Assembly: GCA_045544855.1 (NCBI GenBank)
Contig: JAZPZV010000023.1
Span: forward strand, 2,401-66,400
Direction of reading: 5' to 3'
Length of the DNA stretch: 64,000 nucleotides
Source of the DNA: Eubacteriales bacterium
GTDB lineage: Bacteria > Bacillota > Clostridia > Oscillospirales > CAG-382
Positions within the stretch are counted from its first letter, which is position 1, and each line of letters starts with the position of its first letter. Below are positions 1-48,115 of this stretch, piece by piece. Position numbers and translations under genes: made by a program. The notes under the pieces were generated by a model that was given only the letters and a program-made list of their open reading frames with translations, did not search any database and was not told the DNA's origin.

Positions 1-1
1 A

Positions 2-91
2 GGCACTTATGAAATAACGGCAGAGATTGACGAGTTTATAGCATTTGTAAAATTAGGCTCAGATGTAATTGAATGTTTTGAGTTAAAATAA
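2..91 (+). CDS. 3' end of a hypothetical protein (truncated by window start)
   Basis: Frame 2 is open from the window edge (GTYEITAEIDEFIAFVKLGSDVIECFELK) to TAA at 89-91; AT-rich like the next two genes. Confidence 0.5.
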   Translation, partial: GTYEITAEIDEFIAFVKLGSDVIECFELK

Positions 92-121
92 TGTAAATTC
101 ATATTTAAAGAGGTGATTATT

Positions 122-1018
122 ATGGTTAAAGAATTTTCAAAATATCTTTTCTGCTATTTTGTTGGTAATCATCCTCATGAAGAGCGTGTTCATTTTGCTA
201 TTTCAAAGGACGGATACAACTTTACTGCAGTTAATGAAAACAAGCCCATAATAATTCAGACTAAAGGGAAAAAATGTTGCCGAGACCCTTTTATCTTTCG
301 TGATAATGATGGCGTTTTTCATATAATCGCAACAGATATGAAAAGTGAAGAGGGTTGGGCAAACAACAACTCAATGGTTATGTGGGATAGTGTTGACCTT
401 GTACATTGGACAAACGAAAGAATAATTGATTTTTCAAACTTTGAAGAAACAAAAAATGCTAATAGAGTGTGGGCACCACAAGTCATATTTGATAAATTCA
501 AAAATGAATATATGGTTTATTGGACTCACAACAACGCGGACGATGACCTTGATACAATTACGTGGTACGCATATACAAAAGATTTTCATACCTTTACCAC
601 TCCACCACAAGTGCTTTTTAAGCCAAAAAGCGGAATGTGTGCCATTGATGCCGATATAATAGAGCATAATGGAAAGTATTATCTATATCAGGCAGACGGC
701 GAAAAAGAAGCAATTTGTTATTGCGTGGCAGACAGACCTGATGGTCCATATTATGAGCCTGATTCTAACAAGGTTTCGGTTGCTGATACCGCATTGGAGG
801 GCAACTGTATATACCGAATACTTGGTACAGATAAGTTTGTTATGATTGCTGACCAATTCCGAAAGGGTGGATATTTTATGCAGGAAACAACGGATTTGAT
901 GAATTTCAGTAAAGTCGATGAAAGCAGATTTTCCCTTAATCATCTGACCCCTCGCCACGGCTCTGTTCTTTATATTACCGAACAGGAATACAAGTTTTTG
1001 GAAATTTCAAAATTCTGA
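122..1018 (+). CDS. Glycoside hydrolase family 43 protein
   Basis: GH43 motifs RDPFI, WAPQV, IDADI, LEG and C-terminal RHG; no signal peptide; AGAGGTG RBS upstream of ATG 122 (ORF track starts at GTG 113); low GC. Confidence 0.85.
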   Translation: MVKEFSKYLFCYFVGNHPHEERVHFAISKDGYNFTAVNENKPIIIQTKGKKCCRDPFIFRDNDGVFHIIATDMKSEEGWANNNSMVMWDSVDLVHWTNERIIDFSNFEETKNANRVWAPQVIFDKFKNEYMVYWTHNNADDDLDTITWYAYTKDFHTFTTPPQVLFKPKSGMCAIDADIIEHNGKYYLYQADGEKEAICYCVADRPDGPYYEPDSNKVSVADTALEGNCIYRILGTDKFVMIADQFRKGGYFMQETTDLMNFSKVDESRFSLNHLTPRHGSVLYITEQEYKFLEISKF

Positions 1019-1034
1019 GCTGAATAATAAACTC

Positions 1035-1056
1035 GTCAAATTCCAATTTATCGAAC
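1035..1056. repeat. Boundary motif GTCAAATTCCAATTTATCGAAC (related copies: inverted 1120-1139, direct 1651-1672, core only 95-106)
   Basis: Direct reading: 1037-1056 vs reverse complement of 1120-1139 match 18/20; 1035-1056 vs 1651-1672 match 19/22. Confidence 0.8.
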
Positions 1057-1087
1057 TGAAACTTCAAAAGCAGCAGCCTGAAAACTA

Positions 1088-1117
1088 TTGCACTTCTCTT
1101 GGTATGGGTGGTATAAT
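1088..1117 (+). promoter_or_regulatory. SigA-type promoter (TTGCAC-N18-TATAAT, extended TGn -10) between inverted repeats
   Basis: TTGCAC 1088-1093, TG at 1109-1110, TATAAT 1112-1117. Confidence 0.6.
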
Positions 1118-1142
1118 TGGTTCGATAAATAAGAATTTGTAG

Positions 1143-1646
1143 GTGCGAATGATGAAAACTTTATATATGATTGGTGGCACTATGGGAATTGGAAAAACAA
1201 CTGTGTGCCAACAGCTCAAACAGGATTTACCGAATAGTGTATTTCTTGACGGAGATTGGTGTTGGGATGCAAGTCCGTTCCAAGTAACCGATGAAACAAA
1301 AGCAATGGTGACAAATAATATTTGTTATGTACTCAATAATTTTCTGAAGTGTTCTGCATACGAGAATATCATTTTTTGTTGGGTGATGCACGAGCAGAGT
1401 ATTATCAATTCTATACTTGAGAAGCTAGATACACAAAACTGTGAGGTGAAATGCGTCTCACTTGTAGCGAATGAAAAAACTCTGTGTGAAAGATTGGAAA
1501 TGGATGTAGAAAGAGGTATTCGTTCTGAAGATGTAATTGAGAGAAGCATAGCAAGAATACCGATGTACCAAGCACTCAATACCATTAAAATTGATACGAA
1601 CGCCAAAACTGTGGCTGTGATTGCCAATGAGATAAAGCAGTTGTAA
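1143..1646 (+). CDS. AAA-family / P-loop nucleotide kinase-like protein
   Basis: N-terminal Walker A GGTMGIGKTT, FLDGDWCW motif, 167 aa small-kinase size; low GC; start may be ATG 1149 or 1152. Confidence 0.8.
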   Translation: MRMMKTLYMIGGTMGIGKTTVCQQLKQDLPNSVFLDGDWCWDASPFQVTDETKAMVTNNICYVLNNFLKCSAYENIIFCWVMHEQSIINSILEKLDTQNCEVKCVSLVANEKTLCERLEMDVERGIRSEDVIERSIARIPMYQALNTIKIDTNAKTVAVIANEIKQL

Positions 1647-1677
1647 TACTGTCAAATTCCAATAGGTCGAACAGATA

Positions 1678-1710
1678 AGAGCAGATGGGGAACCCACCTG
1701 CTCTCTCTTT
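1678..1710. terminator. Intrinsic terminator between the convergent kinase and cotJC genes
   Basis: AGAGCAG-atggggaacccac-CTGCTCT hairpin followed by a pyrimidine/T run. Confidence 0.55.
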
Positions 1711-1717
1711 TGTGCGT

Positions 1718-2317
1718 TTATCTCTTATCAAAGCTGGGGTTATAGGCGTAGAAATTCTTGTAGTCCAGGTCGTCCTGGATCATGCGCATACATTCCCCAA
1801 AGCGCTGGAAGTGGACGATCTCACGCTCGCGAAGGAAGCGGATGGGATCACGGACGTCGGCATCATCGCAGAAGCGCAGGATGTTGTCGTAGGTGGTGCG
1901 TGCCTTCTGCTCCGCCCCCATGTCCTCGGAGATGTCGGTGATGGGGTCGCCCTTGGATTGGAGATAGGCCGCGGTGAAGGGTACGCCTGCGGCGGAAACG
2001 GGGTAGATCCCCGTGGTGTGATCCACGAAATAGGCGTCAAAGCCGGACTTTTGGATCTCCTCCATGGTGAGGTTGCGGGTGAGCTGGTACACGATGGCAC
2101 CGATCATTTCCAGATGCGCCAGCTCCTCCGTGCCGATGTCCGTGAGAGCGCCGATAACGTTCTTGTTAGGCATGGAATACCGTTGGGAGAGATAGCGCAG
2201 GGAAGCGCCCAACTCACCGTCGGGGCCGCCGAACTGGGTGATGATCAGCTTTGCCAGGGCGGGGTTGGGGTTCTTGATATTCACGGGGTATTGCAGTTTT
2301 TTCTCGTATGACCACAT
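1718..2317 (-). CDS. cotJC: Spore coat protein CotJC (manganese catalase family)
   Basis: Starts MWSYEKKLQYPV; GGPDGELGA, GTEELAHLE and REIVHFQRF dimanganese catalase motifs; downstream of cotJA/cotJB. Confidence 0.93.
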   Translation of the reverse strand: MWSYEKKLQYPVNIKNPNPALAKLIITQFGGPDGELGASLRYLSQRYSMPNKNVIGALTDIGTEELAHLEMIGAIVYQLTRNLTMEEIQKSGFDAYFVDHTTGIYPVSAAGVPFTAAYLQSKGDPITDISEDMGAEQKARTTYDNILRFCDDADVRDPIRFLREREIVHFQRFGECMRMIQDDLDYKNFYAYNPSFDKR

Positions 2318-2318
2318 A

Positions 2319-2618
2319 TCAGTTGCCTCCTTTCCACGGGCGGGCGTTTTCACCGGGAGAACATCCGCAATTTTGCCATGGCCAGGGGTGCTCCGTCCAG
2401 GTCCAGCGGTCGCTGTTGACGCCGAAGGAAGTGAGAGGTCCGTGGTTCTTTTCAAAGGCGGTGCAAAGCTCGTCGAGCTTCTTTTTGTACGTCTTGTAGA
2501 GGGATAACGCCTTGCGGTTGTCGGGGTGGGTGTCCAGATACAGCACCAGCTCGTGGAGGGCAAAGCCGGTCTCACGGATCTGTTGCAGGGCGGTTTCGTA
2601 GGCAGTCACGTTGTTCAT
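2319..2618 (-). CDS. cotJB: Spore coat protein CotJB
   Basis: LYLDTHP and W-x-W-x-x-x-PWPW motifs. Confidence 0.92.
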   Translation of the reverse strand: MNNVTAYETALQQIRETGFALHELVLYLDTHPDNRKALSLYKTYKKKLDELCTAFEKNHGPLTSFGVNSDRWTWTEHPWPWQNCGCSPGENARPWKGGN

Positions 2619-2809
2619 CGGTGCTTACCTCCTACGAAGGGGAAGTTCAGCGAGCGGAACAGGGTGCCGTTTTTCAGGGCTTCGTCCTCGCCGTAGAGGT
2701 TTTCGAAGGGCTGGTTGGGCACGTAGGACATGGCAAGGGAAATTTTGGCGGGGAACATGCTTTCTTCAAAAGCCATCATGTCCGCCACAAATTGGTCCAA
2801 GGGTTCCAA
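2615..2809 (-). CDS. cotJA: Spore coat associated protein CotJA
   Basis: LAMSYVPNQ...EAL..GTLF..L..PF motif; first gene of cotJABC; start uncertain. Confidence 0.88.
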   Translation of the reverse strand: MEPLDQFVADMMAFEESMFPAKISLAMSYVPNQPFENLYGEDEALKNGTLFRSLNFPFVGGKHR

Positions 2810-2860
2810 AGGGAAGCCTCCTTTTTTATTTTAGGGCAGACGATGGTCCTGCCCATTGAC

Positions 2861-2888
2861 AGGGTATGAAGGATGGCGAAAAATGGTG
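2861..2888 (-). promoter_or_regulatory. Putative mother-cell (sigmaK-like) promoter of cotJABC
   Basis: Minus strand CACC-N16-CATACCCT fits the mACm-N16-CATAnnnT consensus; upstream of a coat operon. Confidence 0.55.
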
Positions 2889-3000
2889 AAAAGGCGGCAA
2901 CAAGAGACGAAGAATCCTCATTTATTTTATATGAAAACTTGCAAAACGATGGGGAATATGGTATACTATACGTGCAAGCAAGATAAAGGAGGCGGAGAAT

Positions 3001-3606
3001 ATGGTTTTGGAAAACAAGCTGGGCATTACCGATGCTCCCGCGCTGGCGGAAGCAGAGGAGAAGATCAGCAAAAAGAAGGCGGCAGAGCTTTTTGAAGGGG
3101 GGCTTCTTAGCAACTTGGAAGCCGGTACGTTTGCTTCCTTGCAGGCCATCCATCGCTACCTTTTCGGGGAGATCTACCCCTTTGCGGGAAAACTCCGCAC
3201 CGTGAACATGGCAAAGGGCAACTTCCGTTTCGCACCTGTGATGTATCTGGAGGCGGCACTTGCCAACATCGACAAGATGCCACAGTCCACTTTTGATGAA
3301 ATCGTGGAGAAATACGTGGAAATGAATATCGCCCATCCTTTCCGTGAGGGTAACGGCAGAAGCACACGCATCTGGCTGGATTGCATTTTCAAAAAGGAGA
3401 TCGGCAAGGTGGTGGATTGGAGCAAGGTGGACAAAGAGGACTACCTGCTTGCAATGGAGCGCAGTCCCATTAGGGATATCGAGATCAAGCATATCCTGAA
3501 AAACGCCCTTACCTCCGACGTGGACAGTCGCGAGGTTTACATGAAGGGCATCGATCACAGCTACTACTATGAGGGATACGCTACCTTTAAGACGGAAGAA
3601 TTGTGA
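3001..3606 (+). CDS. fic: Fic protein, class III (NmFic-like adenylyltransferase)
   Basis: Canonical HPFREGNGRSTR motif and C-terminal inhibitory SYYYEG motif; AAGGAGG RBS; TTGCAA-N17-TATACT promoter at about 2939-2967. Confidence 0.92.
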   Translation: MVLENKLGITDAPALAEAEEKISKKKAAELFEGGLLSNLEAGTFASLQAIHRYLFGEIYPFAGKLRTVNMAKGNFRFAPVMYLEAALANIDKMPQSTFDEIVEKYVEMNIAHPFREGNGRSTRIWLDCIFKKEIGKVVDWSKVDKEDYLLAMERSPIRDIEIKHILKNALTSDVDSREVYMKGIDHSYYYEGYATFKTEEL

Positions 3607-3615
3607 GGTGCAGAG

Positions 3616-4701
3616 ATGCCGGAGGAAAAGAATTGGCAATTTGAGCTTGAAGAATATATCAAGCAGGGAGAGCCGAGTGCAATTGAAAAGAGCCGGGCGT
3701 GGCAGACCGCCATTGGCCTGCAAGCGGTTGATGGATTAAAGACCTCCGAATACTTGCTGGATACCGCCAAGGAGCATATCGAAGGAAACATCACCATTGA
3801 CGAGGCGCAGAACCGAATCCAAAGCTACTATGAGCAACGCACGGAGCGTACGCAAATAGAAGACGAGACCAAGGAAGCGGACATTGTTTCAACGAGAATC
3901 GCAAAGCTTTTGGGCGAAAGAGCCTTTCAGTTTTCCCCCGCCGGATGGCTGACCATTCATCGGAGATTGTTTGAGGGGGTCTTCCGTCACGCCGGGCAGA
4001 TTCGGCAGTACAACGTCACGAAAAAAGAGTGGATCCTGAACGGAGATACCGTCACCTATGCTGATTGGAACGGCATCCGCGACACTTTGGATTATGACTT
4101 TTCTGTGGAAAAACAGTTTTCCTACGAAGGCTTGTCGGTGGATGCGGCTGTAAAGCATTTGGCCAAGTTTGCATCGGATATCTGGCAGATCCACCCCTTT
4201 GGAGAGGGAAATACCCGAGCCACTGCCGTTTTTATGATCAAATACCTGAGGACCTTCGGCTTCACCGTGAACAACGAAGCGTTCGAGAAGAATTCTTGGT
4301 ACTTCCGCAATGCGTTGGTAAGGGCAAACTACAATAACCTGCAAAAAGGAATCCATTCCACGACGAAATACTTGGAGCTGTTTTTCGAAAACCTTCTGTT
4401 GGATGCGGGACACGACCTGAAGAATCGGTATCTGCACGTTGCTTATGTGGAGGGAAACGATTCCCAAAGTGCCAATTTCGAAATCCCAAAGTGCCAATTT
4501 GGCACTTTAGACTGCACTTTGGAAGAACTGGCGATCTTGGAGCTGATTGTAAAGAACCCTGCTGCCAAACAGCAAGAAGTGGCCGATGCATCCGGGAAAT
4601 CGCTTAGAACCATCAAACGTCTGATGAAATCCTTGCAGGAAAAGAACTATATCCGCCGGGAAAACGGCAAGCGTTACGGCAAATGGGAAGTTCTGGTCTG
4701 A
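3616..4701 (+). CDS. Fic family protein with N-terminal VbhA-like segment and C-terminal HTH
   Basis: HPFGEGNTRAT motif; N-terminal AWQTAIGLQAVDGL; C-terminal wHTH (QQEVADASGKSLRTIKRLMKSL...GKWEV). Confidence 0.88.
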   Translation: MPEEKNWQFELEEYIKQGEPSAIEKSRAWQTAIGLQAVDGLKTSEYLLDTAKEHIEGNITIDEAQNRIQSYYEQRTERTQIEDETKEADIVSTRIAKLLGERAFQFSPAGWLTIHRRLFEGVFRHAGQIRQYNVTKKEWILNGDTVTYADWNGIRDTLDYDFSVEKQFSYEGLSVDAAVKHLAKFASDIWQIHPFGEGNTRATAVFMIKYLRTFGFTVNNEAFEKNSWYFRNALVRANYNNLQKGIHSTTKYLELFFENLLLDAGHDLKNRYLHVAYVEGNDSQSANFEIPKCQFGTLDCTLEELAILELIVKNPAAKQQEVADASGKSLRTIKRLMKSLQEKNYIRRENGKRYGKWEVLV

Positions 4702-4721
4702 CGCGAATCTTCACACAACAC

Positions 4722-4753
4722 AAAAAAGCACCCTTCAAGCGGAGGGTGCTTTT
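4722..4753. terminator. Bidirectional intrinsic terminator
   Basis: AAAAAAGCACCCT-tcaagcgg-AGGGTGCTTTT between convergent genes. Confidence 0.75.
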
Positions 4754-4772
4754 CAATTGCTTTTTGGGATTT

Positions 4773-6152
4773 TTATTCCGCTTCCTTCAAAGGCTTGATC
4801 TTTTTGCGGTAAATGCGGATAAACAGCACGATGGTGGCGGCAAGGCTGACGAACTCTGCGATGACGAAGGCCCACCACACCAGATCCACGTTGCCTGCAA
4901 GGCTTAACAGATACGCCACGGGCAACAGCACCAAAAGCTGTCTGCTTAAGGAGACGATGGTGGAATAGAACCCGTTCCCCAGCGCCTGGAAGGAGGCGGA
5001 CAAGGCGATGGCCACCGCCGCAATGGGGAAGGACCAGGAAATGACCCGCAAGGCCACGCGGCCGATGGTCAAGAACTCATCCGTCAGGTTAAACAGCCCC
5101 AACAGGAAGTCCGGCGCAAGCTGGAAGGTGAGCCAGCCCGCAAACATGACCCCCAAGGCGATGCCGCAGGTAAGCTTCAGGGTGCGGGTAATGCGGGAGG
5201 GCTTGCGGTAGCCGTAGTTGAAGGCCACGATGGAGATGCAGGCGTTGTTCATGCCGAACAGGGGCATAAAGAAGAAGCTCTGGATCTTGTAGTAGATGCC
5301 GAAGACCCCCGTTGCCGTCTCGGAAAAGCCCTGGAGAATACGGTTGATGCCGAAGTTCATCACGGCGCCGATGGCCATCATAATGGCAGAGGGGATACCG
5401 ATGGCAAGGATCTCCTTGACCAGATGCCACTTGGGCAGCAGGTAGGACAGGCGGAAATCCACGTCCTTGTTGCACTTCAAATTGAAGAACAGCGCCAGAA
5501 GTGCCGCCACCCACTGACCGATCACCGTTGCGATGGCCGCGCCTGCAATGCCCATTTCGGGGATGCCCAAGGCGGGAACGCCGAAGATGAAGATGGGGTC
5601 AAGAATGATGTTCAAAACGGCACCCGTGCCCTGGGTATACAGGGTATAGATGGTTCTGCCCGTGGCCTGGAGCATACGCTCAAACAGCACCTCGAACACG
5701 ATGCCCACGATGAAGATACAGCAGATCGCTACGTAGGTAGAGCCGCTTTCCACGGTAAAGGGCACGTCGGACTGCATTTCGAAGAAAGGCCTTGCACCGA
5801 AGAAGCCGAAAAGCATGAACAGCACCGTGACCACGGCGGAAAGGAAAATGCCGTTCCCCGCTACGCGGCTGCCCCGCTCCCTGTCTCCTTCCCCCAAAAA
5901 GCGGGAAAGCAGAGCGTTCACGCCCACGCCCACGCCGGTGGCAAAGCCGATCTGCAGGTTCTGGATGGGGAATGCCAGGGAGAGGGCTGTGGAAGCCTCG
6001 GGGTTGTATTGGGTGACGTACATGCTGTCCACAATATTGTAGAGGGCCTGCACCAGCATGGAGGTGATGAGAGGCCACGCCATGTTCAGAAGGAGCTTGC
6101 CTTCCGACATCACCGCCATTTTGTTATCGTTTTTGGAAATGGTCTTGGTCAT
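4773..6152 (-). CDS. MATE family efflux transporter
   Basis: About 12 TM helices; LYNIVDS, NIILDPIFIFG, GAAIATVIG and FNYG motifs. Confidence 0.92.
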   Translation of the reverse strand: MTKTISKNDNKMAVMSEGKLLLNMAWPLITSMLVQALYNIVDSMYVTQYNPEASTALSLAFPIQNLQIGFATGVGVGVNALLSRFLGEGDRERGSRVAGNGIFLSAVVTVLFMLFGFFGARPFFEMQSDVPFTVESGSTYVAICCIFIVGIVFEVLFERMLQATGRTIYTLYTQGTGAVLNIILDPIFIFGVPALGIPEMGIAGAAIATVIGQWVAALLALFFNLKCNKDVDFRLSYLLPKWHLVKEILAIGIPSAIMMAIGAVMNFGINRILQGFSETATGVFGIYYKIQSFFFMPLFGMNNACISIVAFNYGYRKPSRITRTLKLTCGIALGVMFAGWLTFQLAPDFLLGLFNLTDEFLTIGRVALRVISWSFPIAAVAIALSASFQALGNGFYSTIVSLSRQLLVLLPVAYLLSLAGNVDLVWWAFVIAEFVSLAATIVLFIRIYRKKIKPLKEAE

Positions 6153-6176
6153 AAAACGTCCTTTTTGGGGGAGAGC

Positions 6177-6527
6177 TTAACGAAGATCTGCGGTGGCTAC
6201 CAGATTGGCGCCGAAAAGGTCTGCCAGCAATACGTCCCCGATCTTCACACCGTCGGGAGCGATGACGCCGTTTACCTGCTCCATGGCGGCAAACAGGCTT
6301 CCCTTGGGGATGGGTCTGTCCGTCTTCACGGGCAACAGCTTCCCGCTTGCCGTCTTCACGGTGGTGGTGAGGGTGCGTACAGGGTGCAGCAGCTCGTTTT
6401 TTGCGTAGGGAACGCCCCGGGGGCAGGTGTTGCCCTCCACAGAGAGGATCTCGCCCTCCTGGTTTTGGGTGACGGTGAGGGTACAGCCCATGGGGCAGAC
6501 GATACAAGTCAGTTCGGTTGTCTTCAT
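6177..6527 (-). CDS. DUF1667 domain-containing protein
   Basis: CIVCPMGC...GNTCPRG motif, typical third gene of this oxidoreductase cluster. Confidence 0.85.
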   Translation of the reverse strand: MKTTELTCIVCPMGCTLTVTQNQEGEILSVEGNTCPRGVPYAKNELLHPVRTLTTTVKTASGKLLPVKTDRPIPKGSLFAAMEQVNGVIAPDGVKIGDVLLADLFGANLVATADLR

Positions 6528-6540
6528 GGTTGTCCTCCGA

Positions 6541-7782
6541 TTATTCTACGCAAACCGTCAGATCCCCGTTTGCCTCCGAAAGCAGGGCGGGGGAGAGACG
6601 GACGGATTCCATTTCGCCGGGGGTCATACGGCGCTTTTTCTTGGTGAGAAGCAGATTGTCCCCGCATTTTACGGTGAGCAGGGCGCTGTCCGCCACGCTT
6701 CCCACGCGGAAGAACAGGGTGACCTCCTCCTTTGCGCTGTCGATGCGCTGGGGGACGGTGTAACGCACCTTCCCCGCGGGCTTGACGGCCAGGGCGATCT
6801 CCTTGGCGGGAGCGTTCCCCTTGATATATGCCGCGGCGGCGTTGCCTGCCAAAGCGGCCTCCTCGGAAACGAAGTCCACCAGATCGTGTACGTGCAACAC
6901 GTTGCCACAGGCAAACACGCCCTCCAAGGCGGTTTCACGGTTCTGGTTCACGGTGGCACCGCCGGTGATGCCGTCTAAGGGGATGCCCGCAGACTTGGTC
7001 AGCTCGTTTTCGGGGAGCAGACCGCAGGAAAGAAGCAGGGTGTCGCAGGGGATGTAGGTCTCCGTCTCGGGGATCACCTGCAAACGTTCATCCACCTTAG
7101 CGATGGAAACGCCGGTGACACGCTCTTTACCGTGAATGCGGGAGACGGTGTGGCTGAGATACAGGGGAATGTCAAAGTCGCGGAGACACTGCACGATGTT
7201 GCGGTTCAAACCGCCGGAATAGGGCATAAGCTCGCAAACTGCCTTTACCTTTGCCCCCTCCAAGGTCATACGCCGTGCCATGATCAGGCCGATGTCTCCC
7301 GAGCCCAGGATCACCACCTCTTTGCCGGGCATGTAGCCCTCCATGTTCACGAATCTCTGCGCCGTACCTGCGGTGAAGATCCCCGCGGGACGGGTGCCGG
7401 GAATGTTCAAAGCGCCTCTGGGACGTTCTCTGCACCCCATGGCCAGCACCACGGCGGTGGCCTCCAGGGTGAAGATGCCCATCTGCTTGTTCATGGCGGT
7501 GACGGTCTTGTCGGGGGATACGGAAAGCACCATGGTGCCGCAAAGAGATTCAATACCTCTTTCCCGCACCTGCTGTTCGTACCGTGCGGCGTATTCCGGG
7601 CCGGTAAGCTCCTCCCCAAAGCGGTGGAGCCCAAAGCCGTTGTGGATGCATTGCTGTAAGATACCGCCCAGGGAGGTATCACGCTCTAAAACGAGAATAT
7701 CCCGAATCCCGCTGTCGTAAGCGGCAACGGCGGCGGCAAGGCCCGCAGGACCTCCGCCGATGATCACCAATTCCTTTTTCAT
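6541..7782 (-). CDS. FAD/NAD(P)-dependent pyridine nucleotide-disulfide oxidoreductase
   Basis: GGGPAG Rossmann motif, QCIHNGFG, GSGDIG, FACGNVLHVHDLVD. Confidence 0.88.
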   Translation of the reverse strand: MKKELVIIGGGPAGLAAAVAAYDSGIRDILVLERDTSLGGILQQCIHNGFGLHRFGEELTGPEYAARYEQQVRERGIESLCGTMVLSVSPDKTVTAMNKQMGIFTLEATAVVLAMGCRERPRGALNIPGTRPAGIFTAGTAQRFVNMEGYMPGKEVVILGSGDIGLIMARRMTLEGAKVKAVCELMPYSGGLNRNIVQCLRDFDIPLYLSHTVSRIHGKERVTGVSIAKVDERLQVIPETETYIPCDTLLLSCGLLPENELTKSAGIPLDGITGGATVNQNRETALEGVFACGNVLHVHDLVDFVSEEAALAGNAAAAYIKGNAPAKEIALAVKPAGKVRYTVPQRIDSAKEEVTLFFRVGSVADSALLTVKCGDNLLLTKKKRRMTPGEMESVRLSPALLSEANGDLTVCVE

Positions 7783-46170: not shown

Positions 46171-46878
46171 TCAGAACAGGAATTTCAGAATTTGGATCGC
46201 ATCAAAGAGGCGGAACAGAATGGTTTCTTCGGGGTCCAAAGAAGCGAAAAGGTCCCAACCGATGGCGGTTGCCACGGTGGCGATCACGCTGACCACGGCG
46301 CAGAAGATGAGCACCCGCACGAAGGCCAGCAACACGCCCAACAGGAGGCCCAGCAGGGTGTTGAAGGTGCGGATAACGGGGATCTTTTCCACAATGCCGG
46401 TGAGCAGCTTTCCAAAGAGCTTAAGCAACAAAACGGTTCCGAAGAACAAGATCAGCGTGGAGAGGGCTCTCATCACCAACGAGGTGACGGGATCGGCTAT
46501 GTAGTTTACGATCTTCTTCTGCAGCTTATCCTCTTCCTCGGCAAGGTGATCCTCCACCCACTCGGAAAAATCCTCGGTATCGACGCCCAGGGTATCCATG
46601 GCGGAATACAAAGCGCTGTCGGAGTCCTGTGCCAATTCGGTGATGCTGGTCTTTTCCGTCAGCCCTTCCACAAAGTTTTCCACGCCGCCGTAGACCGCAT
46701 CCCCCAACGGAGTGGAGACCAGTGCGCCGGCCAGCAGGCCGGTAAAGCAAGCTACCACGATCAAAGCGATCAAAGAGCTTGCGGCGGAAACCACGGTCTT
46801 GATAAAGCCGCGCTTTGCAGCCATCACGATGGTCATGACCGCAATGACGAGAATGATAAGATCAACGAGAATGTTCAT
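46171..46878 (-). CDS. CvpA (colicin V production) family membrane protein
   Basis: D.IIL...KRGFI and IP.I..FN.LLG.LLG pattern. Confidence 0.75.
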   Translation of the reverse strand: MNILVDLIILVIAVMTIVMAAKRGFIKTVVSAASSLIALIVVACFTGLLAGALVSTPLGDAVYGGVENFVEGLTEKTSITELAQDSDSALYSAMDTLGVDTEDFSEWVEDHLAEEEDKLQKKIVNYIADPVTSLVMRALSTLILFFGTVLLLKLFGKLLTGIVEKIPVIRTFNTLLGLLLGVLLAFVRVLIFCAVVSVIATVATAIGWDLFASLDPEETILFRLFDAIQILKFLF

Positions 46879-48115
46879 AAGATTCCTCCTTGCTTGTAAC
46901 AGTCAATCTGTACGTTAAGTTTTTTTCAAAAATAACGGGAGTGCCGTCATCGTCAAACAGTAATTGGGCCGCTTCCTCTCTGGCAGGGTAAACGACGGGC
47001 TCTTCCCCGGAAAGAACGGTGAGCTTATCGGCGGAGAGCAGATACAGGGTGTCCTCGTGATACCGCAGGTCGATGGGGATCCCCTCGCAGGGGGTGTGGA
47101 CGACCGTCTTGCCTTCGCTGTTGTACACCGTCAGCGTCACGCCGTCGGAAAGTCCTTTTCCCGTGGTGATCAACGCCAGGACTCCGTTCCCGAAGCGGCA
47201 GTTGGCAAGACCCGCCCCCTCTACGGAAAGGGTCTCCGTGGGGGTGTTGCTTTCCCCGTCGTAGAACCGCACCGCAGAGCCGGTGAGCACCGCGTAATCC
47301 CCGTTTTCCATGTAGCCTACCATCAGGGGAAGCTCCCCCGTGTAGGTGGCGGAAAACAGCGGGTCTTCCTCCTTTACGGAATAGACCTGCAGCAGGGTGC
47401 GGAGGTAACCGCCTCCCGCCTCGTGGCCCAAGGCCAGGAATCTGCTTCCGTCGGGGGAAAGGGCGATGTAATCGATGTAGGTGTTGCTCAGCAGACGCTT
47501 ATAGATCTGCCGTGCGTAGGCGTCGTAAACGTAAATGGCACTGCGGTAGTTCTTTTCCGCGGTGATCACGGCGAAGTGACCGGAATCCACGGCGGAAAAG
47601 CCGTAGATGGGATAATCCATGGAAAGGCGTGCCAATTGGGAGTAGGAATTGAACATCCGCACCTCGTTGCCCCCCAGATCGTAAGCAAAGATGTTCTGGG
47701 TGGTGGCCACCAAGCGGGGATCCTCCATGCGGAAGCTTTCGGAGAACATCTTGTTCCCCACCGTGCCCGCTTCACGGCTGTATACCGTAAGCCCGTCGGT
47801 GTTCAGCACCGCAAGGTCGCCCTTGAACAAAGCGCCTCGGTTGGACTCTCCGTAATCGTAGCGGACCTCCGCCGTCTCGGAAACGTCAACCTCCGTCAGA
47901 TCCAGAAATTTCAACATATAGCGGAAATTTTCTGCGGTAAGCACGTCCCCGTGGGCGGCAAAGCCGTACACCACGAAAAGCACCGTCAAAAGCAGACAGA
48001 TATACCGCAGGTGGGATACCCGCCGTGCTTTCTTCTCGTAATACTGTTCCACGGTGGGCGTTTCCGTATTCTTTTTTTGCTTTTTGCGGTCGGTAAAAAT
48101 GGAAAACGCAGACAC
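46862..48115 (-). CDS. Membrane-anchored beta-propeller protein (DUF5711-like)
   Basis: Single N-terminal TM then repeated beta-strand blades (YDLGG, ALSPDG); located before cvpA. Confidence 0.65.
   Translation of the reverse strand: MSAFSIFTDRKKQKKNTETPTVEQYYEKKARRVSHLRYICLLLTVLFVVYGFAAHGDVLTAENFRYMLKFLDLTEVDVSETAEVRYDYGESNRGALFKGDLAVLNTDGLTVYSREAGTVGNKMFSESFRMEDPRLVATTQNIFAYDLGGNEVRMFNSYSQLARLSMDYPIYGFSAVDSGHFAVITAEKNYRSAIYVYDAYARQIYKRLLSNTYIDYIALSPDGSRFLALGHEAGGGYLRTLLQVYSVKEEDPLFSATYTGELPLMVGYMENGDYAVLTGSAVRFYDGESNTPTETLSVEGAGLANCRFGNGVLALITTGKGLSDGVTLTVYNSEGKTVVHTPCEGIPIDLRYHEDTLYLLSADKLTVLSGEEPVVYPAREEAAQLLFDDDGTPVIFEKNLTYRLTVTSKEESYEHSR

Follow-up and report, generated by a model that had tools for sequence, protein, structure and literature searches.

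Several described systems gather small accessory genes into larger backbones, and it is against these that we set a short palindromic site recurring beside the genes in the first 1.68 kb of a 64,000-nucleotide (nt) stretch of an Eubacteriales genome, the whole of which we call the window. In integrons, a tyrosine recombinase, IntI, is encoded by the array with attI and Pc, the cassettes are promoterless, and the attC site is an imperfect palindrome of 57-141 base pairs (bp) that folds as a single strand. In SCCmec, units are stacked at the 3' end of a conserved gene, and the recombinase is a large serine recombinase of the ccr type. For phage morons we know of no common site, and MTnSag1 is, we take it, an ISSag10-type element that carries lnu(C). 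In the pdif modules of Acinetobacter, as described in passages of one account (PMC13141974), inversely oriented sites bound two classes of module that alternate, the modules hold no recombinase, and single modules are exchanged through the formation and resolution of cointegrates.

The site that concerns us is a non-random, conserved, polar, palindromic duplex at which cargos become unlinked from their backbones; gut Clostridia and their prophages carry it widely, and it also flanks the passenger genes of IS1595-like elements on plasmids. We found no description of this motif in the literature. An earlier reading of the window from its letters alone (hereafter, the sequence-only reading) could match a site of this kind to no described system, and the literature and our comparisons bear it out. 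The same reading called the array integron-like. Its observation was largely right and its label was wrong: that single genes are delimited and exchanged at a recurring site, and far beyond the window, is a claim that holds up well.

What, then, does the site look like, and how sure can one be that it is a site at all? It is an imperfect palindrome of 22-24 bp with a polar centre and the core AAATTCCAATTT, and it comes in two forms. The 3' copy has the consensus GWCAAAT-TCCA-ATTTRTCGAACAG(AG) and begins 4-16 nt past the stop codon in the window (-5 to +16 nt genome-wide). The 5' copy is the same palindrome, inverted and with a different centre, GTTCGATAAAT-AAGA-ATTTGWS; it lies 3-8 nt downstream of TGnTATAAT and directly before the ribosome-binding site, and by eye TGnTATAAT stands upstream of it in the window, on contigs C55, C51 and C20 of the same genome (G000, 98% complete) and at many other loci. 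The sequence-only reading had described a recurring AAAT-N4-ATTT motif after each gene, with an inverted copy before the kinase start, and had taken it to delimit gene units. In its loose form the motif is weak: there are three matches against 0.82 expected, a number reached by 8 of 100 shuffles and insignificant alone, the copy at 95-106 matches this loose core only, and the stretch at 1654-1665 (AAATTCCAATAG) fails it. The long form stands, as do the placement past the stops, the inverted copy and the delimiting of gene units: CAAATTCNNATNNNTCGAAC, with at most one mismatch, is matched three times in the 64-kb window (1037-1056 and 1653-1672 on the plus strand, 1120-1139 on the minus strand) and not once in any of the 100 shuffles. 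Genome-wide, a score of 17 of 22 or better is reached by 13 sites and, with the motif reversed as a control, by 0; at 16 or better the counts are 24 and 2. All those scoring at least 18 lie in patches of low guanine-plus-cytosine (GC) content on contigs C20, C23, C51, C52 and C55. That the motif is a chance similarity in AT-rich DNA might be argued from the insignificance of the loose core, but with this excess, and with hundreds of copies elsewhere in the same placement, we give chance practically no weight. When sites were picked by their palindromic arms alone, with the 4-nt centre left free (TCGATAAATNNNNATTTATCGA; 74 loci, about nine expected by chance), the centre was TCCA in 20 of the 74, so that the centre belongs to the signal and gives the site its direction.

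The kinase-like gene of the window has at least 589 relatives in the contigs of the genome collection, many of them more than 90% identical in amino-acid sequence, in Clostridia, Bacilli, Erysipelotrichaceae and other groups. They stand in 34 distinct upstream and 30 distinct downstream contexts, and in these the likeness begins and ends inside the site. Between AATTTG and CAAATTCCAAT the agreement per column is 0.9 or more (a few columns fall to 0.5 at two positions that vary with cargo lineage); it is 0.6-0.8 in the outer 3' arm and 0.5-0.9 in the outer 5' arm, and beyond them it sinks to about 0.3-0.4, which is background. At several other cargo ends the likeness likewise stops at the site. 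In four gut metagenomes, one run from each of 4 studies, depth (the summed depth of Logan contigs) rises from 6-22 over the GH43 gene through 70-100 over the promoter piece to 800-7000 over the kinase and drops back at cotJC, so that kinase and flanks differ by a step of about 100-fold at the site. Metagenome contig ends cluster at 1036-1038, 1118-1145 and 1650-1674, and some contigs attach other sequence to the 1035 site at 1036 and 1038. All of these runs are assembled contigs, and no public run contained half of the sampled words. Two kinds of joint were not used as evidence: the "go-back" joints 1674>1127, which may be the common inter-cassette junction and not a circle, and the joint 1147>1655, one side of which is only 20 nt. 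The kinase-like gene is, in short, heavily exchanged. Its product has a weak NCBIfam match to Gar/GrdA (gentamicin resistance), at 36 bits with a cut-off of 170.

The converse, one backbone with many cargos, is also found. In a prophage genome, in which PHROGs identify the portal, the major head and major tail proteins and the tape measure, 15 contigs show at least five cargos in one slot between the tail-protein and tape-measure genes, all with the same 5' and 3' sites; in two of the loci (L263 and L273) the cassette lies between a tail protein (phrog_2115) and the tape measure (phrog_58) and has a GC content of 38-42% against about 50%. Among the prophage-slot contigs (L252-L290) one cargo is ThuA-like, and the cargos are expressed from TTGAAA-17-TGGTATAAT. 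A second slot belongs to the IS1595-like insertion sequences (IS) ISSag10 and ISCco2, found on plasmids of Glaesserella, Campylobacter and others, whose backbone reads GTCGCCTAAT-TAGA-ATTTG...CAAAT-nnCA-GTTTGTAGGGG. Directly after the transposase gene it carries the lincosamide resistance gene lnu(C), or else a gene for a GNAT protein or an AAA ATPase. All three lie behind one TAGA-ATTTG 5' junction, and in the copies with lnu(C) or GNAT the 3' end is shared as well, CAAAT-nnCA-GTTTGTAGGGG. A chromosomal cassette of Clostridia (L068) encodes Lnu(C) as well (379 bits, cut-off 300), and its likeness to the IS copies spans exactly AATAAGAATTTG to CAAAT, site to site. The arms of the ISSag10 backbone and those of the cargo share only about 5-10 nt. 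Close relatives of the window's host tell the same story at the cotJC end: a genome about 95% identical (G012) has a different gene at the same ...GTCGAACAG|ATAAGAGCAG-cotJC junction, and the likeness of the window to this genome begins at 1653, and to another relative (G007) at 1677. Whether gene content changes at the motif among relatives was a check that the sequence-only reading had proposed, and it does.

The same reading had proposed that the motif be sought after stop codons elsewhere. The exact 17-mer of the 3' site occurs at 120 or more loci of the genome collection (chance alone, at uniform composition, would give about 139), and 65 of the 80 titles listed among them are those of Clostridia-type gut genomes. 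Half of the hits, 63 of 126, lie at most 20 nt past the stop codon of an open reading frame (ORF) of at least 50 codons on the same strand, against 9 of 126 random positions in the same loci, and 44 of the 126 have a 5'-type site 100-3000 nt upstream. The same 17-mer occurs in 36 viral contigs; the plasmid collection held no match to window 1030-1680. In arrays (L165, L187, L191 and L192) the orientation of the sites alternates, which means that cargo modules alternate with linker modules. The linker is of 2 nt, or a 63-nt promoter piece, or a terminator plus backbone, and the 2-nt linker yields a recurrent 46-bp junction (C55, L165, L181, L183, L187, L191, L192, L197). In the window the series runs plus at 1035, minus at 1120, plus at 1651, with inverse sites round each module, and the site at 1651 is the left half of the common 46-bp junction.

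Some bracketed modules are not ordinary genes. In one Verrucomicrobia-type contig (L133:4280-5180) what lies between the sites is a Y1 transposase gene, IS200-like and with GC-rich inverted repeats of 170 bp, and in another (L115:4740-5150) it is a 400-bp non-coding derivative; a further repeat module follows the site in the latter contig, and follows it also in Akkermansia-type contigs (L032, L073). In a metagenome-assembled Clostridia genome (L034:2730-3050), the motif opens each of three units of about 100 nt in tandem, and no ORFs lie between the units.

How might such modules be joined and parted? We lean, with no more than modest confidence, to the explanation that they meet at one palindrome and are exchanged by site-specific recombination, with the enzyme acting in trans. 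Each cargo (GH31 plus GH43; the kinase) is bracketed by inverted sites, the 5' copy past the extended -10 element and the 3' copy past the stop, and recombination would take place near the centre of the site, on duplex DNA. Single modules would be replaced by way of two crossovers, and linker-plus-cargo pairs would be gained or lost between directly oriented sites, as proposed for the Acinetobacter dif modules. We infer site-specific recombination, by an enzyme supplied in trans and not encoded by the cassette, because the arms are conserved despite unrelated flanks, because the centre is conserved too, because the sequence shared in ISSag10 is too short for homologous recombination, and because the backbones are too diverse to have a common enzyme of their own. 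It is conceivable that the direct sites at 1035 and 1651, which bracket the promoter and the kinase, let that stretch be excised as a circle. In broader terms, we may be looking at a system of cassette exchange, so far not described, in gut Firmicutes and their phages, in which a 22-bp polar palindrome and a trans-acting enzyme move single self-expressed genes, such as lnu(C) and the kinase, among chromosomes, prophages and insertion sequences; this we offer tentatively, as something possible that falls a little short of probable.

A good deal weighs against recombination at the site, and the enzyme is the first difficulty. No recombinase is tied to the site. The sequence-only reading suggested that one may lie to the left of the window, and there is none in the 2.4 kb that remain there; PF00589 finds three genes in G000 (C7:222483-223442, C7:226734-227735 and C55:14018-14926), a XerC-like and XerD-like pair on C7 and a third tyrosine recombinase of 303 amino acids (aa) on C55, all far from the sites, with none near C23:1-4100 or the C55 end. 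Neither PF00239 (serine recombinases, ccr type) nor PF01797 (Y1 transposase) has a hit in the genome, and no gene family, recombinases included, recurs beside the sites when the neighbours of 126 sites in 120 loci are clustered. The DNA itself raises the second difficulty. No circle, empty site or inversion was seen, in data that are Logan contigs, unable to show circles or rare variants; the predicted empty form, GATAAAYNNGAATTCCAATTTRTC, gave two hits, both within genes. The centres of the 5' and 3' copies differ (AAGA and TCCA), where the product of a simple attB x attP reaction would share its crossover bases, and, as every context preserves the site in full, the crossover can be resolved only to the central 6-10 nt. 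Short-homology exchange would produce the same pattern. The promoter and terminator that we read by eye are absent from the lists of an automated promoter and terminator scan, and the fixed place of the sites relative to promoter, ribosome-binding site and stop would also suit an expression signal.

This last point deserves a hearing of its own. The motifs could be expression signals in a travelling "expression scaffold", an operator at +1 to +20 and, behind the stop, another operator or an mRNA-end element, with cargo swaps a by-product of homologous or microhomology recombination. The 5' copy always has TGnTATAAT on one side and the ribosome-binding site on the other; the 3' copy follows closely on the stop, ahead of a terminator-like hairpin; orientation relative to the gene is constant, and among some 30 kinase contexts there is no inverted cargo. 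The window's own pair of sites can, moreover, form a long stem: the 105-nt pair at 1035-1139 is the only one that folds (z -3.09). Yet the folding energies of single sites are only -0.3 to -1.5 kcal/mol (z -1.05 to +0.65), the 46-bp junction does no better (z +0.49), and the 5' and 3' copies on C51 show no compensatory changes between them. The sites also surround the non-coding module and the IS200-like element of the Verrucomicrobia-type contigs, the motif opens each of the three ORF-less units in tandem, and the 5-10 nt shared by backbone and cargo arms in ISSag10 are too short for homologous recombination. We judge this explanation rather unlikely, if still a serious one. The binding boxes of Spo0A, CodY, LexA, ArgR, PurR and IHF bear, by eye, only a partial likeness to the site, and Rfam gave a single match, below threshold.

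Could the cargos instead be non-autonomous transposons, with short terminal inverted repeats (GAATTTG...CAAATTC), moved in trans into a palindromic target in the manner of a mobile insertion cassette (MIC) or of repetitive extragenic palindromes and their transposase (REP/RAYT)? The ends of the cargos are nearly invariant 7-bp inverted repeats, one contig has the site-bracketed Y1 gene and another a 400-bp non-coding derivative, and the pair at 1035-1139 resembles an inverted REP doublet. Mobile insertion cassettes and miniature inverted-repeat transposable elements, however, do not have flanks like these, which are inverted and not direct, without a direct target-site duplication. A Y1 transposase is absent from G000 and from the other 365 loci, the site-bracketed gene of L133 being the only one, and single sites do not fold, which sets the locus apart from REP/RAYT; we accordingly rejected a Y1/RAYT origin of the motif. 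No uninterrupted target was found, and the 20 palindromic-arm sites with a TCCA centre among the 74, which come from Clostridia-type gut genomes, look like 3' sites of the ordinary kind. Taken as a whole, movement of this kind seems to us improbable.

For a classical integron, or an attC cluster without its integrase, one can cite what the sequence-only reading cited, small co-oriented genes with a repeat after each, and add that the cargo types are like those of integron cassettes (acetyltransferases, methyltransferases, nucleotidyltransferases, small kinases). Both have arrays of small accessory genes split by a recurring imperfect palindrome. No IntI-type gene lies near the island, the site is of 22-24 bp and unfolded, the units bear promoter-like elements of their own, and there are two inverted sites to each cargo and not one per cassette. 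Folding as a hairpin or in the manner of attC was considered and is not general, which speaks against an attC-like or REP-like mode. The earlier label, contradicted by these features, was rejected; we consider it very unlikely. The cargos of the window, which that reading called unrelated, are so only in part, for the kinase is a separate unit and GH31 and GH43 are both glycoside hydrolases within one bracket.

The closest likeness, in our view, is to the dif modules, although we do not claim membership among them. The two have in common discrete modules, often of one gene with its own promoter; short inverse sites and two alternating classes; replacement of modules between related backbones, with breakpoints at the sites; and a recombinase that the modules do not encode. 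They differ in that the site here is of 22-24 bp, whereas pdif is a 28-bp site made of a XerC arm, a 6-bp spacer and a XerD arm; in that the modules here sit in Firmicutes chromosomes, prophages and insertion sequences, and those of Acinetobacter on Rep_3 plasmids; and in that here one type of site is always in the 5' leader and the other always after the stop. The site differs, too, from the sole palindrome in G000 with dif-like arms, ATAA-N6-TTATG (TGGCTACATAATTTATATTATGTTGTTG, C55:13966-13993), which adjoins the third tyrosine recombinase gene and with it may form a single-recombinase Xer-type module; a Xer/dif reading of the motif, though possible, is not supported, the only dif-like palindrome of the genome being unlike it. 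Large serine recombinase genes lie beside the cassette in two viral contigs (L275, by Pfam; L256, by eye), other backbones are without them and G000 has none, and a serine recombinase was rejected on that account. Restriction and ligation at RAATTY cores was rejected as well, since both hits of the predicted empty form are within genes and the 3' site of ISSag10-lnu(C) has no RAATTY. No empty docking site of the form X-N4-X' occurs among the loci examined.

Phage morons and their "boundary sequences" resemble the cassettes in being AT-rich, self-expressed genes placed between phage genes with short conserved border sequences, and the cassettes of L263 and L273 are placed in just this way, the window's copy not being in a phage. 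Unlike morons, the cassettes have one defined site, common to phages, chromosomes and insertion sequences of different phyla. In ISSag10 and ISCco2 the lnu(C) passenger is one of the site-bounded cargos; the IS, however, moves by its own transposase and ends, and the cargo of its slot changes by a separate process.

If the motif is indeed a recombination site, it would explain how small accessory genes (Lnu(C), GNAT, small kinases) reach unrelated backbones of gut anaerobes with no recombinase of their own, it would show concretely how phage morons are acquired, and it would offer a simple sequence tag for mobile cargo in metagenomes. It would also be a natural counterpart of recombinase-mediated cassette exchange.

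The window itself (G000:C23:2401-66400) leaves 2.4 kb of contig C23 to its left. The earlier description of its first 1.68 kb as AT-rich is confirmed in 300-nt windows, where GC is 0.31-0.41 as far as about 1650 and then, from 1651, 0.54-0.61, with a genome mean of 0.535; the 2.4 kb to the left are likewise AT-rich and hold, in order, the end of a 2Fe-2S-domain gene, a 62-nt promoter piece and the start of the GH31 gene. Positions 1-1675 are the end, next to cotJC, of an AT-rich island whose genes are small and self-expressed; the island runs from C55:85745 to C23:4075 and crosses at least one assembly gap. GH31 and GH43 form a two-gene cargo within one bracket, from C23:500-521 to window 1035-1056, and the promoter piece at 1078-1139 has a 97% identical copy at C23:458-519, upstream of GH31. 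To the right stand cotJC, cotJB and cotJA, on the opposite strand (Pfam Mn_catalase, CotJB and CotJA). The weak copy at 95-106 may be a decayed short junction, or chance, and the hairpin beyond the last site has, to judge by its letters, a putative terminator-like role.

Table. Features at the left end of the window (positions in the window unless a contig is named)
Feature	Position	Strand	Details
GH31-family gene, 3' end	1-91	+	652 aa, starts at G000:C23:533; TAA 89-91; Pfam Glyco_hydro_31_2nd 6.9e-67
Weak copy AAATTCATATTT	95-106	+	Between GH31 stop and GH43 ribosome-binding site; loose core only
GH43-like gene	113-1018	+	ORF, second in GH31-GH43 cargo; stop 1016-1018; Pfam Glyco_hydro_43 4.4e-14
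3'-type site GTCAAAT-TCCA-ATTTATCGAAC(TG)	1035-1058	+	Closes GH31-GH43 cargo
Promoter module	1057-1119	+	TTGCAC 1088-1093, 18 nt, TGgTATAAT 1109-1117 (read by eye)
5'-type site GTTCGATAAAT-AAGA-ATTTG (as + strand)	1120-1139	-	Between -10 element and ribosome-binding site AGGTG 1141-1145
P-loop kinase-like cargo gene	1149-1646	+	ATG 1149 or 1152; stop 1644-1646; Pfam AAA_18
3'-type site GTCAAAT-TCCA-ATAGGTCGAACAG	1651-1674	+	Last site of island; chromosomal sequence after ...GAACAG
GC-rich hairpin AGAGCAGATGGG-GAA-CCCACCTGCTCT, then CTCTCTTTTG	1678-1704		Kept beside cotJC in G012 and G007
cotJC	1718-2311	-	Pfam Mn_catalase 1.5e-50

Why is the island where it is? The sequence-only reading was unaware of the answer, which is repeated insertion at the 3' end of cotJC. 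The last 82 nt of cotJC (1717-1798) are repeated at C55:85663-85744 with 94% identity, and this copy marks the other limit of the island. It is followed, in order, by a 245-nt leader, a promoter with its 5' site, a short membrane-protein ORF, the 46-bp junction, a kinase gene 95% identical to that of the window (C55:86215-86757) and a 3' site. In G012 the whole unit (terminator, cotJC end, leader, promoter, cargo, 3' site) is repeated head to tail. Six congeners (G003, G007, G010, G012, G014 and G019; loci L007, L018-L023) have 2-3 direct copies of the cotJC end, each of 53-210 nt and 0.7-3 kb apart, with AT-rich units between them whose cargos vary and in some cases are without the motif. We suppose that small integrase-less units would insert repeatedly at the 3' end of cotJC and that each would bring a replacement gene end, so that old ends pile up as direct repeats. 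The insertion could be site-specific, or it could be of the Campbell type, through 82-145 nt of homology. No integrase lies beside the cotJC arrays of G003, G007, G010 and G019, whose ORFs were read by eye with no Pfam scan, and this, together with cargos that differ and sometimes do without the motif, marks cotJC stacking as separate from exchange at the motif. It is a second oddity of the genus, and we found no account in the literature of cotJC as an insertion site for such units. SCCmec resembles it, as regards the stacking only, in insertion at a gene's 3' end, in tandem units between direct repeats and in the lack of a recombinase from some units; it differs in that G000 has no ccr-type recombinase, the units measure just 0.7-3 kb, and what is repeated is a piece of cotJC of 53-210 nt.

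A few smaller observations concern the surroundings of the cassettes. Ahead of the cassette on C20, the stretch 46870-46990 resembles by eye the 3' end of a tyrosine recombinase gene and directly follows the terminator-like hairpin of an upstream GC-rich gene (rpsI, by eye); it is possibly a remnant of the element that delivered the cassette. Just past cassettes, short direct repeats occur at C51:25100-25200, C20:47480-47520 and C23:340-400 (TGTCGTAAA..TGTGTCGTAAA, GGTGCAAATTTGGTGCAAC and TGTGGTCAA..TGTGGTCAAA), and also in G049 and G012 at the C51 locus; they look like iterons or arm-type binding sites, as of decayed integrative elements.

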